A DNA stretch of 64,000 nt from a virus (Duplodnaviria > Heunggongvirae > Uroviricota > Caudoviricetes), in IMG/VR virus record IMGVR_UViG_2684623171_000009; one strand, written 5' to 3'. Below, piece after piece: positions 4,223 to 6,822 of this stretch; the stretch's first letter is position 1; the number at the start of each line of letters is the position of its first letter. The position numbers and the translations under genes were made by a program. The notes under the pieces are model-generated. The model was given only the letters and a program-made list of their open reading frames with translations. It was not told the origin of the DNA and did not search any database.

Positions 4223-4275
4223 GGGCGGCAGAGCAGTCACGGAGTAAAACTGATACCGCCAAACGTCACCAGAAA
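4223..4275 (-). ncRNA. dicF: DicF small RNA (53 nt) with intrinsic terminator
   Basis: Minus-strand sequence UUUCUGGUGACGUUUGGCGGUAUCAGUUUUACUCCGUGACUGCUCUGCCGCCC followed by a U-run; immediately upstream of dicB. Confidence 0.85.
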
Positions 4276-4616
4276 ATTGATAACAGAGGGCGTTGCAGCG
4301 GGGTTGTCACTTAAGCGTATGGTCAACCTGACAACCCGGTGTCCTCAACGGGGGAAGGAATAACCCCTCCATACTTACCGCCGCGCCATTTCGCGGATTG
4401 CCACAACCGGAAGCGCACGGTCGACGAAAATTTAACGACAGGCTATCTATGAACCAGCTACCTCGCCGTGCGCTTTCGCGTTATGGTCTGACTTTTCAGG
4501 GAAATATCCTTTCAGTAAACTGTCAGTGCCGTATGCTCACCCGTGTCCGGCGCACGCACTCCACCTCACCCGTGGAGAACTCCTTAATTACCAACCTTAG
4601 CTTCGTTGGTTAGCTA

Positions 4617-4835
4617 TTAACGCGGGTATGTAATCATTCTGGCAATGCTTAATGCCGCTGCTTTTTCCAGATTGGTGATATCCTGCTCCAGAGCGGACAG
4701 ATTTTCAGCCTGCTTAGCCCTGGCTTCATTGGCCCATTTCAGATCCTGCGCTGCATTAATTTTCTGGTGCATCCACTCATAAAGTTCATCATCGGTATAG
4801 TCTGGCGCGATGATGACGGGTTCTCGTTTCTGCAT
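4617..4835 (-). CDS. YdfC-like small prophage protein (72 aa)
   Basis: 72-aa ORF upstream of dicF on the operon strand; size and position match Qin ydfC. Confidence 0.4.
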   Translation of the reverse strand: MQKREPVIIAPDYTDDELYEWMHQKINAAQDLKWANEARAKQAENLSALEQDITNLEKAAALSIARMITYPR

Positions 4836-4927
4836 GTCGGCTCCTTGTGGTTAGCGTTGCCTGCTTTTAACCACGTCAGGCGAGGTGGTATCCTCTGAGG
4901 GGTCTGTTACTCGAGAGGAAATTGGTT

Positions 4928-5128
4928 ATGAATACAATCAAGTTTTCTTGCCCAGAATGTGGTGGCGAAGTCTTTGACACATCCTTTAAGCCGCAGGGCT
5001 CTGACAGTTTCGCGGGAGCCATCTGCAAAAATTGTGGTCACCTTGTAACTGAAGATGAGTCCTCGCAGTTCGATGACGAAATCGTTGACAATATCTTCGG
5101 TGCACTCACCAGAGACTTTCTGAAGTAA
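4928..5128 (+). CDS. Small zinc-ribbon protein (66 aa), antisense to the dicB operon
   Basis: CPECGG...CKNCG zinc-ribbon pattern, acidic C-terminus, GAGG upstream of ATG; an overlapping minus-strand ORF also exists. Confidence 0.5.
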   Translation: MNTIKFSCPECGGEVFDTSFKPQGSDSFAGAICKNCGHLVTEDESSQFDDEIVDNIFGALTRDFLK

Positions 5129-5469
5129 AGGCGCATACCGCTTAGTTACCGCTCTGATAACTCTTACCTGTCCTGCAATGGCGCTGATGTCAATATAAAG
5201 CGCCATTGCTGCTTCTTTGCCGATCCCGGGATGCCTTCCATTCTGATGTTTGACTTCGCCCACTGAGAAACCCTCTGTTTCCCCTTAACGCCGGGGTAGC
5301 GGAACAAAAACCTGCTGCATAGTTATTAAAGTTGAACCCTGCCGTCATGTTCATACGCCTCGGGCTGGCTACTTAACCCCTGACCACTGCCGGGTAACTC
5401 GAAGTATTTCCCTGCGTTCTGTGGGGCGGGGTGGGTTGGTATTTTTAGTTTAATAAACATTAAACTTAA

Positions 5470-5540
5470 GTCAAGTAAAAACTAAACCGCGGGACATAAC
5501 AAACACAACGCTTTTGATAAAGTCGTTGCGGTTGTTATGT
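5470..5540 (-). terminator. Putative intrinsic terminator downstream of the toxin gene
   Basis: About 17-bp imperfect inverted repeat (GACATAACAAACACAACG...CGTTGCGGTTGTTATGT) followed on the minus strand by a U-rich tract; coordinates approximate. Confidence 0.35.
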
Positions 5541-5558
5541 TTCTATTGGTAGTGAAAG

Positions 5559-5837
5559 TTAGGGAAACTGGCGTCTTGCGTGGATCACGTTTACTACTTC
5601 AACGCTTGATGTTGTTACGCGGTATAGAATTATATAGTTAGGGTGGGCTACAATCTCACGCAAGCCAGGTACTCTGTCGCTTGGTGGGTATAAATACGGA
5701 TGTTCGGATAACGGCAGCACACAACCCCTTAATCGCTGCCATAAGCGTTCAGCCGCATCTATGTCGAAACGAGCAATATAACTAGTTATATCATCTAGGT
5801 CGGTATCTGCGCTTTCAAGCCATAACACGGGTAACAT
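5559..5837 (-). CDS. parE2: ParE/RelE-superfamily type II toxin (92 aa), ParE2-like
   Basis: C-terminal motif ...YRVTTSSVEVVNVIHARRQFP; start 1 nt after the antitoxin stop. Confidence 0.75.
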   Translation of the reverse strand: MLPVLWLESADTDLDDITSYIARFDIDAAERLWQRLRGCVLPLSEHPYLYPPSDRVPGLREIVAHPNYIILYRVTTSSVEVVNVIHARRQFP

Positions 5838-5838
5838 T

Positions 5839-6030
5839 TTACTGCTTGCTCCGTTCCTTGCGCATCTTAGCAAAGCGTTCTGCCATTCTGCGCTCAACTT
5901 CGTCATGGGGAATTGCTGGGCGCGGATCTGCAAGGCTCGTTGCTACTTTCGCACGCAGCCATTCGTTGTAACTGTTTTCTTGTTCAATGGTTTCAAATTC
6001 AGAAACCATTGGTGAAAGGGCTCTATTCAT
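5839..6030 (-). CDS. paaA2: Antitoxin (63 aa), PaaA2-like
   Basis: 63-aa ORF immediately upstream of and translationally coupled to the ParE-like toxin. Confidence 0.65.
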   Translation of the reverse strand: MNRALSPMVSEFETIEQENSYNEWLRAKVATSLADPRPAIPHDEVERRMAERFAKMRKERSKQ

Positions 6031-6050
6031 GTTTCCTCCGGTTTTATAAC

Positions 6051-6422
6051 TCAGGCGCGGCGGCATTTTTGCGCCGCAATCCATCTCGCTATGAGATCTT
6101 CCATTGATTCTTTTTTCTGCTTTAACTCGCTGATTATCTGGCGTTGCTCATCCTCAGGGAAGGCTGAAAAAATCTGCAATAATTCCAGTTGATTAGACGT
6201 TAACCCTGCATGTGGTGGAGAACCCCCCGGTTGTTCTGCGTATTCCGCATCCAGATACCCTTCCGGCATCCCGTATGTTTGCTCTATTCTTCTGGCAGCC
6301 TTTTCTCCAAACGAGGCTCTCCCACTCATTAGTTGAGATAGGTAGCTCTTCTCTTTGGGTGGCAGAGTTTTATCTTTAAACCACTCCTTGAGACGTAAAC
6401 GGCGAATTTCTTTTTTTTGCAT
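6051..6422 (-). CDS. paaR2: XRE/DicA-like HTH regulator (123 aa), PaaR2-like
   Basis: N-terminal HTH; C-terminus resembles DicA; first gene of the three-gene toxin-antitoxin operon; divergent from a Cro-like gene. Confidence 0.65.
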   Translation of the reverse strand: MQKKEIRRLRLKEWFKDKTLPPKEKSYLSQLMSGRASFGEKAARRIEQTYGMPEGYLDAEYAEQPGGSPPHAGLTSNQLELLQIFSAFPEDEQRQIISELKQKKESMEDLIARWIAAQKCRRA

Positions 6423-6519
6423 GTGGTAATTATCTTTAGTAATCACTAAACAAGCAAATACTTGACTTAATGGTTTATTAAACACTAAACTCGCAAAAAA
6501 ACACTAAACCGAGGAAGGT
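6423..6519. promoter_or_regulatory. Divergent promoter/operator region between the DicA-like regulator and the Cro-like gene
   Basis: Three direct copies of CACTAAAC; TTGACT(-35)-like hexamer about 17 bp from TAAACT; RBS GAGGAAGG before the 6520 ATG. Confidence 0.5.
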
Positions 6520-6822
6520 ATGACATTAAAAGAGTTTATTAAATCATTAAGGGTTGGTGATGCTAAGAAATTCGCGGCCAGACTTGGTGTATCGCCATCT
6601 TACTTATCGCAAATGGCGTCTGGACGAACAGCTATATCTCCAACCCGCGCCCTTATGATCGAATCTGCGACGGAAGGCCAAGTAAGTAGGGCGGAGCTAC
6701 GACCCCATGATTGGGAGCTTATTTGGCCTGAGTATGCGAGCGGCATTCGTTTGGGGCAAACACATGTAGTTCATGCTGAAGGTGATTGTAGTGCATGCTT
6801 ATCTGATGGAGTTGATTCATGA
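6520..6822 (+). CDS. YdaS-like Cro-type HTH regulator
   Basis: LGVSPSYLSQMASGRTAISPTRALMIESATEGQVSRAELRPHDW pattern as in YdaS; divergent from the repressor. Confidence 0.6.
   Translation: MTLKEFIKSLRVGDAKKFAARLGVSPSYLSQMASGRTAISPTRALMIESATEGQVSRAELRPHDWELIWPEYASGIRLGQTHVVHAEGDCSACLSDGVDS

Follow-up and report, generated by a model that had tools for sequence, protein, structure and literature searches.

A folded leader RNA of the early-leftward operon in Rac/CP-933P-type lambdoid prophages

The repeated block and the genes around it

The window, which is the whole stretch of 64,000 nucleotides of Caudoviricetes DNA that was analyzed (IMG/VR record IMGVR_UViG_2684623171_000009), carries two lambdoid prophages of the Rac/CP-933P kind. 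Each carries one copy of a block, here termed copy A (window 5278-5433) and copy B (36653-36808). At an offset of 31375, copies A and B can be aligned gap-free; their 156 nt contain four mismatches (5353, 5392, 5409 and 5416; 97.4% identity). The neighboring 100 nt on each side are only 21% and 34% identical and hence unrelated, and the promoter and the first gene mark the exact points at which identity between the copies drops to background. The original prediction of a conserved block of about 155 bp between different flanks was borne out; the first interval it gave (5282-5436) is right to within 3-4 nt, whereas the second (36655-36809) is displaced by 2 nt, and the identity is 97% rather than 96%. 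The location that it described, between the immunity region (in copy A with the paaA2-parE2 cargo) and the ydfC-dicF-dicB genes, was confirmed. The promoters and genes that bear on the block are the following.

5447..5474, minus strand: PL promoter of copy A (PL933P), with -35 TTGACT at 5474-5469, a 16-nt spacer and -10 TAAACT at 5452-5447 (consensus scan)
About 5440, minus strand: predicted start site of copy A, the promoter lying outside the conserved block
4223-4274, minus strand: DicF of copy A (Rfam RF00039)
36822..36850, minus strand: PL promoter of copy B, TTGACC-17-TAAACT (consensus scan)
About 36815, minus strand: predicted start site of copy B
36490..36642, minus strand: gene at the head of the left operon in copy B, 50 aa, DUF1391/YdaF family (Pfam DUF1391, 103.8 bits), with its own SD UGAGGU
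35240..35291, minus strand: DicF small RNA of copy B (Rfam RF00039), in the same leftward operon, upstream of dicB
35257-35242, minus strand: intrinsic terminator of copy B DicF (terminator scan)

The two DicF copies score 75 and 76.7 bits against RF00039. The immunity region beside copy A (5559-6485) consists of the three-gene paaR2-paaA2-parE2 module (Pfam PaaA2 and ParE) and is therefore the CP-933P immunity region studied by Jurenas et al. (PMC8630535). The repressor beside copy B is of the S24-peptidase cI type (36935-37573, minus strand; Pfam Peptidase_S24 and HTH_3), and the copy B PL promoter lies directly 3' of its gene. The two prophages are thus heteroimmune, yet they share the block. 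Including the copy in the Rac prophage of Escherichia coli K-12, which lies between racR and the 44-aa ydaG ORF and is 88% identical, the block is common to prophages with different repressors (PaaR2, S24-type cI and RacR) and different first genes.

Directly after the block of copy A, at window 4907-5263, two overlapping ORFs occupy opposite strands, and databases disagree about which is real: the 118-aa minus-strand ORF matches phrog_21318 (224 bits) and is annotated in phage Evi, and the 68-aa plus-strand zinc-ribbon ORF is the RefSeq 'ECs_2282 family'. Several other Rfam elements also occur as pairs, one in each prophage, namely the sok/CssrC antitoxin RNA, STnc100 (the late-promoter leader) and tRNA gene clusters (11120-11294/42501-42675, 15233-15405/47991-48163 and 14210-14456/46969-47218).

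A search for the block in other prophages had been proposed together with the original prediction, and the block proved to be common in E. coli and present in several other genera. It occurs in 3706 of 5426 complete E. coli genomes (68%), at 6579 places and one to seven times per genome, an abundance that far exceeds chance, and the best database match is to E. coli O157:H7 (100%). Only 12 deposited phage genomes contain it. Their annotations over the block conflict, with nothing annotated, a hypothetical protein on either strand, or a 'head-DNA stabilization protein D', and the few coding sequences called there are inconsistent in strand and frame. In RefSeq the block is unannotated in 29 of 30 sampled genome rows. 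The original prediction had named membership of the block in an annotated protein-coding gene of relatives as evidence against itself, and in substance no such gene was found. A scan of the window with Rfam 15 at gathering scores placed no family in the block, a permissive scan of window 5100-5600 (E up to 10; 4227 families) returned chance eukaryotic matches only, and a full-text literature search for the block sequence gave no match.

The promoter and the predicted start site

On the minus strand, the gap between a sigma-70 promoter and the block is 6-14 nt, and the block begins at about +8 in both copies, counted from the predicted start site. In K-12 Rac, the promoter TTGACA-17-TATAGT (an 11/12 match) lies 7 nt before the element. 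The copy A promoter was named PL933P by Jurenas et al. (mBio 2021), who found that its gfp fusion is active and is repressed about 100-fold by PaaR2 and by YdaS (PMC8630535). From the primers, the published PL933P-gfp fragment can be placed at window 5441-5556, where it stops just short of the block (PMC8630535); the promoter therefore works without the block. Of the roles that the original prediction had offered, that of a promoter is thereby discounted, the promoter lying upstream, and that of a leader is upheld by a block that begins about 8 nt 3' of a predicted sigma-70 start site. Nothing downstream of PL933P could be assigned to a function by Jurenas et al. (PMC8630535). The hexamers of PL933P are identical to those of PR933P, as checked at 6461-6490.

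The position of the start site is preserved among relatives of the block, whose collection is described below. There are 166 distinct upstream sequences, 128 of them with a promoter match of at least 8/12, and in 99 of those 128 the -10 ends 38-42 nt before the apical loop of the hairpin described in the next section, despite differing promoter sequences.

Between the parE2 stop (5559) and the PL -35 (5474) lies a near-perfect 47-nt palindrome (5494-5540), which gave spurious miRNA matches in Rfam. As it is followed by GGTTTAGTTTTT on the minus strand, it may terminate the paaR2-paaA2-parE2 operon or insulate it from PL.

On the minus strand, no intrinsic terminator was found at or after the block before the first gene. 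For the small RNA that the original prediction had also offered, the signs of a terminated gene are incomplete: its own promoter is present, but there is no terminator that would define a short transcript. In lambdoid prophages of the Rac/CP-933P type, the block is the non-coding, folded RNA leader at the 5' end of the early-leftward (PL-type) operon.

Architecture of the leader RNA

The leader is composed of a long hairpin, an invariant tract, a variable region and a terminal hairpin, located as follows.

5376..5432, minus strand: hairpin of copy A in three tiers (model columns 10-66; the types give concordant folds when taken singly), made up of 12 rungs interrupted by a 3x3 internal loop, a 5' bulge of 4 nt, 7 rungs and an apical helix
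5395..5409, minus strand: apical helix and loop, (C/A)AAUAC-NNN-GAGUUA, in which the central three bases alone vary; invariant in 51 distinct aligned sequences
5341..5375, minus strand: invariant 35-nt tract of copy A, UAAGUAGCCAGCCYGAGGCNNANGAACAUGAMGGC (consensus of alignment A5)
5361-5358 and 5348-5346, minus strand: SD-like GAGG and invariant AUG, within the 35-nt tract of copy A
5297..5340, minus strand: mini-ORF start, variable hairpin, conserved GCAGCAGG, U/A-rich linker and GUUCCGCUA, which is possibly boxA-like (listing of variants)
5281..5296, minus strand: terminal boxB-like hairpin CCCC-GGCGUUAA-GGGG, the conserved block ending at 5278
36653..36816, minus strand: leader RNA of copy B (covariance model R1, 118.5 bits, E = 2.6e-30)
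36751-36807, 36716-36750 and 36656-36671, minus strand: hairpin, invariant tract (with AUG at 36723-36721) and terminal hairpin of copy B

Two details of the original prediction are explained by this arrangement. The paired G/C runs are real and are the two arms of the hairpin (CCCC..CCAC and GUGG..GGGG), and the minus-strand ORF start is present, with AUG at 36723 in copy B and at 5348 in copy A, where there is an additional upstream AUG at 5354. The 35-nt tract and the apical helix are essentially unchanged in all types of the element that we found. Among 77 E. coli-type variants both are nearly without polymorphism, unlike the 5' tail and the stretch that follows the tract, which vary. The GAGG and the invariant AUG are separated by 9 nt. 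After GCAGCAGG there follow an A/U-rich linker, then (C)GUUCCGC, and then the terminal hairpin, the stem of which covaries among relatives (CCCC/GGGG, CCC/GGG, CCGC/GCGG, GCCG/CGGC and GCCAG/CUGGC). Its loop is GGCGUUAA (8 nt) in the window, and elsewhere GGCGACAA, GGAAGA or GAAAGA. The first gene begins 10-25 nt 3' of the terminal hairpin, and the similarity between heteroimmune phages stops there. Long-range pairings of GUAGC with GCUAC, of GAAC with GUUC and of the apical loop with the tail were judged by eye to be unsupported by the variation in relatives.

Conserved unpaired nucleotides between covarying stems, in a 5' leader and beside an SD and AUG, are the usual signature of a riboswitch. 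Read in this way, a host metabolite or signal would be bound by an aptamer made up of the hairpin and the invariant tract, and early-left expression would be tuned to the state of the cell. We regard this as improbable, as no multi-helix junction or pseudoknot was detected in the leader, there is no alternative terminator/antiterminator pair, and none of the 4227 Rfam families matches; nor do the downstream genes suggest a ligand.

The leader could instead be an element of RNA processing or stability. The irregular hairpin of 24 rungs would then be an RNase III-type site, such as those of the lambda N leader and the T7 early RNAs, or else a trans-acting RNA of about 100 nt would be released, which might, for example, titrate a host protein or a defense sensor. 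The length of the hairpin and its internal loops suit what is generally known of RNase III substrates, the leader should by its position be the most abundant early RNA, its invariant single-stranded tracts could be a binding surface, and PreS/LPR1, a phage small RNA from the lambda left operon, provides a precedent. However, RNase III needs no invariant loop sequence, there is neither a terminator nor any other defined 3' end, and Hfq-type features are absent. The fixed distance from the start site and the strict association with PL are better suited to a role in cis, and a processing role thus appears unlikely to us.

Relatives and covariation

To collect relatives, we scanned IMG/VR, GTDB species genomes and metagenomes with patterns taken from different parts of the element. 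The scans yielded several hundred loci, in Escherichia, Shigella, Serratia, Pectobacterium, Superficieibacter, Arsenophonus and Ca. Phlomobacter, with many copies in the Arsenophonus and Phlomobacter genomes. They comprise at least 10 types with wholly different stem sequences, and when folded singly all types give one architecture: 9-13 unpaired nucleotides lead into a helix of 12 rungs, which in the E. coli type is interrupted by an internal loop, and a 5' bulge of 4 nt, a helix of 7 rungs and the apical CAAUAC-NNN-GAGUUA follow. Some loci depart from it. The middle tier of the hairpin is deleted in some copies from Arsenophonus and Phlomobacter (L139, L150 and L154), and in locus L008 (about 4560-4700) the 5' half of the hairpin is an unrelated sequence and the invariant tract is retained, which marks this copy as recombinant or decayed.

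An initial MAFFT alignment that took in all types (A3) mis-registered the stems, and RNAalifold found just three invariant pairs in it. Alignment A4 was made with MAFFT from three types of equal length; it contains 27 sequences and zero gaps and consequently owes nothing to any structure. In A4, standard pairs make up 78.5% of cells, compared with 22-46% once the 3' partner has been slid by 1-3 columns; compensatory changes occur in 13 of 22 pairs, compared with at most 4 in the slid controls. The covariation score of A4 was reached by none of 500 shuffles, and the two inner tiers were found independently by RNAalifold. A covariance model built from A4 was used to align the remaining types, giving 18 of 22 compensatory pairs in alignment A5 (51 distinct sequences) and 19 of 22 in A6 (40 distinct sequences, including newer types); both were fitted to the model and lean towards it, and the ungapped A4 is the unbiased result. 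Three pairs, the apical AU, AU and UG, are constant throughout. The invariant U.G pair supports the assignment of the strand, as do the single transitions of the E. coli type, which give G.U 11 times and A.C 3 times. The minimum free energy of the whole leader is no better than that of shuffled sequences (z = +0.87), and the support for the structure therefore comes from covariation and not from energy. Covariation had been proposed as a test of the block, and the stems do covary. Selection acts on the hairpin to maintain its base pairing.

Lambdoid phages typically have mosaic boundaries, and the two copies in the window are 97% identical, as might be the case if the block were a DNA-level site or a recently exchanged recombination segment with no function of its own. 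Such an explanation is hardly credible, since the retention of one architecture with wholly different stems, in at least 10 types and several genera, is incompatible with neutral hitch-hiking, and the position relative to the start site is fixed.

Coding potential

The reading frames that open at the invariant AUG in relatives encode MTAG*, MTAL*, MTAVVD*, MTAVVVK*, MTAMLI*, MKASDDS* and MKASVVISN*, among others. The peptide is 4-9 codons long in most relatives and 18-20 in K-12-like forms, and in the copy B lineage the frame continues into the next gene, so that the AUG of copy B is in frame with the DUF1391/YdaF gene and opens a 77-aa ORF (36490-36723). The distance from the AUG to GUUCC leaves residues of 0, 1 and 2 mod 3, and the frame in which the conserved GCAGCAGG is read differs among variants. 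No Pfam family was found for the 54-aa and 118-aa ORFs of copy A, and the Pfam DUF1391 profile begins at the downstream methionine of copy B, which has its own SD. We conclude that the block is not part of a protein, because neither peptide nor frame is conserved and no Pfam family corresponds to it.

The opposite view, that the block encodes the N-terminal part of the 54-aa ORF of copy A (5190..5354) and of the 77-aa ORF of copy B, is very improbable. Both ORFs exist, the PHROG profiles phrog_751 and phrog_37620 extend N-terminally into the leader, and a coding sequence is annotated there in a few records. Yet the ORF stops after 4-9 codons in most relatives, insertions and deletions of 1-2 nt are tolerated, the start of the DUF1391 profile leaves the leader outside that family, and substitutions follow pairs rather than codons. 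As the two PHROG profiles include the 77-aa extension of copy B, some phage annotations evidently run coding sequences through the leader.

A very short ORF may still be translated from the invariant AUG. The leader peptide proposed in the original prediction gains weak support from the invariant GAGG-N9-AUG, and it is opposed by an unconserved peptide and by the loss of frame to the downstream motifs. The main rival to the interpretation that we favor, set out below, makes use of translation. Ribosomes would start at the GAGG-N9-AUG mini-ORF and trail the polymerase through the leader of about 150 nt, where they would shield it from Rho or gate a nut-like site, with the hairpin and the tract tuning initiation. 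This is a possibility of which we are rather doubtful. In its favor, the GAGG and AUG with their fixed spacing are invariant in 181 distinct variants, and at least four sense codons follow in every variant. The MTAVVD and MKAVVD peptides use different valine codons (GUU and GUA), and in the Arsenophonus type the stop codon falls 5-12 nt before a boxA, an arrangement that can be likened to that of lambda cro before nutR. In lambda, the translated cro gene precedes nutR. Against it, neither the length nor the sequence of the peptide is conserved (MTAG*, MTAL*, MKASDDS*, 18-20 aa, or fused), the stop codon falls within different structural elements according to type, and frame to the downstream conserved motifs is not maintained. 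The sequence AUGACGGC is invariant even at wobble positions, which indicates a constraint at the level of RNA, and the invariant tip of the hairpin, 50 nt upstream, is left unexplained by ribosome loading.

nut sites and N genes

In relatives of the Arsenophonus type, an exact boxA (CGCUCUUUAAC), a lambda-like boxB (CGCUGAAAAAGCG) and then an N gene come after the element, the N genes scoring 28.9 and 42.8 bits against Pfam N_peptide (cut-off 27.9). A nutR after cro in these phages is without the element. The boxA and boxB take the place of the 3' part of the block, and the terminal hairpin in the window can accordingly be read as a remnant or analog of nutL; the first 105 nt are a separate upstream module specific to PL. 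One locus of Ca. Arsenophonus triatominarum (L134, 1-4100) bears two tandem immunity regions; in each, cro and cI are accompanied by the element, a boxA/boxB pair and an N gene.

No N was detected in the E. coli forms. Translated in six frames, the window contains no ARM/W-AAN motif, and neither PHROG nor Pfam identifies N among the ORFs of the left operon. The leader has GUUCCGCUA in place of the boxA consensus (CGCUCUUUAAC-like); a search of the window for boxA as GCTCTTTAA with one mismatch gave 12 matches where 11.6 were expected, none of them in the leader. A scan of the whole window with the covariance model, with filters off, found two copies only, none of them on the PR side, and the terminal hairpin does not recur on the PR side of the window. 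The element is specific to the PL side. A canonical nut/N system was rejected for the window, which has no boxA above chance, no PR-side copy of the hairpin and no N-like protein. Two further candidates were set aside. Matches to a nutR-like boxA in loci of the L006/L067 type lie antisense within the repressor gene and are due to chance. In Pectobacterium-type relatives, an Arg-rich ORF of about 50 aa (…RRAQQLARRAQVQRNSKKWDAANRIM…) occurs a few hundred nucleotides after the leader (L009 3001-3153; L284 2014-2166; L268 9883-10080); to the eye, the …KKWDAAN… ORFs of this type are similar to the ARM of lambda N, but they match nothing in Pfam and are not counted as N.

A proposed role in the left operon

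We present a hypothetical model in which the leader is a cis-acting module that sets up read-through of terminators in the left operon. It is the reading that we favor, tentatively and with less than even confidence. The leader is the first RNA to emerge from every polymerase leaving PL after loss of the repressor. It folds into the long hairpin, with its fixed geometry and invariant tip, after which come the 35-nt tract, the variable hairpin and the boxB-like hairpin. It would act in cis on its own elongation complex, as nutL and putL do in other lambdoid phages, by contacting RNA polymerase, Nus-type host factors or both, joined by N in phages that encode it. Transcription could then pass the terminators of the operon, among them the DicF terminator and Rho-dependent sites, and read-through would reach dicB/kil, the recET-type recombination genes and xis-int.

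We infer this processivity function, and the binding partner of the leader, from four considerations. The first is the position of the element and its fixed distance from the start site, and the second is its physical linkage to nut-type sites in relatives. The third is that the E. coli forms lack N, yet their operon contains the DicF terminator. The fourth is that a fall in RacR induces the left operon of Rac over its whole length, from ydaG through to ydaC: in K-12, loss of RacR raises ydaG/ydaF about 40-fold and ydaC more than 70-fold, ydaG/ydaF being promoter-proximal and ydaC lying at the far end of the left operon, where it adjoins xis/int (PMC6765115; PMC11014345). Uniform induction of Rac could, however, be explained by weak terminators alone. 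The leader shows no likeness to put RNA and has no canonical boxA, and its RBS-like invariant GAGG-N9-AUG suggests a mechanism based on translation. The strongest argument against an antitermination role is that relatives with N and nutL keep the element too; it thus does not simply stand in for N and may have another role.

It is possible, although doubtful, that the leader represents a new class of self-sufficient regulatory RNA. It would be either a protein-independent antiterminator unrelated to put that binds polymerase or Nus factors, or a leader that senses the state of the cell and gates the kil/dicB, recombination and excision genes. A protein-independent antiterminator would explain how Rac-type phages that lack N express a long operon containing terminators. 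If the leader modifies the elongation complex without a phage protein, it would be the second such type of phage RNA after put.

Whatever its mechanism, the leader represents an RNA family that is widespread, lacks annotation and has the support of covariation, and it occupies a classical regulatory position. Prophages of the Rac and CP-933P types belong to the most frequent residents of E. coli, and their left operons encode inhibitors of cell division (kilR, dicB and DicF), RecET recombination and excision functions. As the unpaired parts of the leader are invariant from Escherichia to Arsenophonus, and the leader is present in 68% of complete E. coli genomes, they offer an easily mutated handle on the readout of the left operon. 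Even with a modest role the family would merit an Rfam entry, which would keep annotators from running ORFs through the leader.

Comparison with known systems

Leader RNAs of phage early operons are already known as a general kind, and this one is a new family among them. The published PL933P/OL operators of CP-933P (PMC8630535) belong to the same locus as copy A, and the published construct ends at the start site. PreS/LPR1, the lambda small RNA, sits at tL2a, flanked by ea10 and ral, and is a different element.

The leader occupies the same spot as lambda nutL, in the PL leader before the first gene, and its boxB-like hairpin covaries. Unlike in nutL, the terminal loop is GGCGUUAA, of 8 nt, and not a GNRA-like pentaloop. 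The first 105 nt have no lambda counterpart, and the element is absent from nutR.

Leader-peptide and Rho-dependent attenuators of the tna type resemble the element in having a short ORF with a good ribosome-binding site in a long 5' leader, and the stop codon that lies near boxA in some relatives is a further likeness. In contrast to those attenuators, there is here no conserved peptide, stop position or defined rut/terminator pair.

A parallel in position and logic exists with put. HK022 putL and the putL-like RNA of HK639, which are clearly homologous to each other, are cis-acting RNAs located just 3' of PL and starting within about 10 nt of the start site, and put occurs in phages whose own transcripts are not acted on by N. 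Read-through by put is independent of protein and is lost on mutation of the rpoC zinc-binding domain of beta'. In HK639 as in the prophages described here, the RNA is carried on the left operon only. GenBank also annotates an 'M3-like RNA' in phage HK639 (L285 12911-12970), after cII in the rightward operon, besides the putL-like RNA. The architectures differ. put is about 70 nt long (126 nt as annotated in HK639) and has two stem-loops that meet at a G35-A9 platform, with a conserved A3-G7/C15-U19 duplex and U28, none of which is shared by the block, which has one 57-nt hairpin and a 35-nt invariant tract. With covariance model R1, the best match in the HK639 early region has E = 0.84, and none in the HK022 region has E < 0.01. 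Homology to put was therefore rejected, as neither comparison by eye nor the covariance model reveals similarity of sequence or structure; what the leader retains in common with put is an analogy of position and logic.
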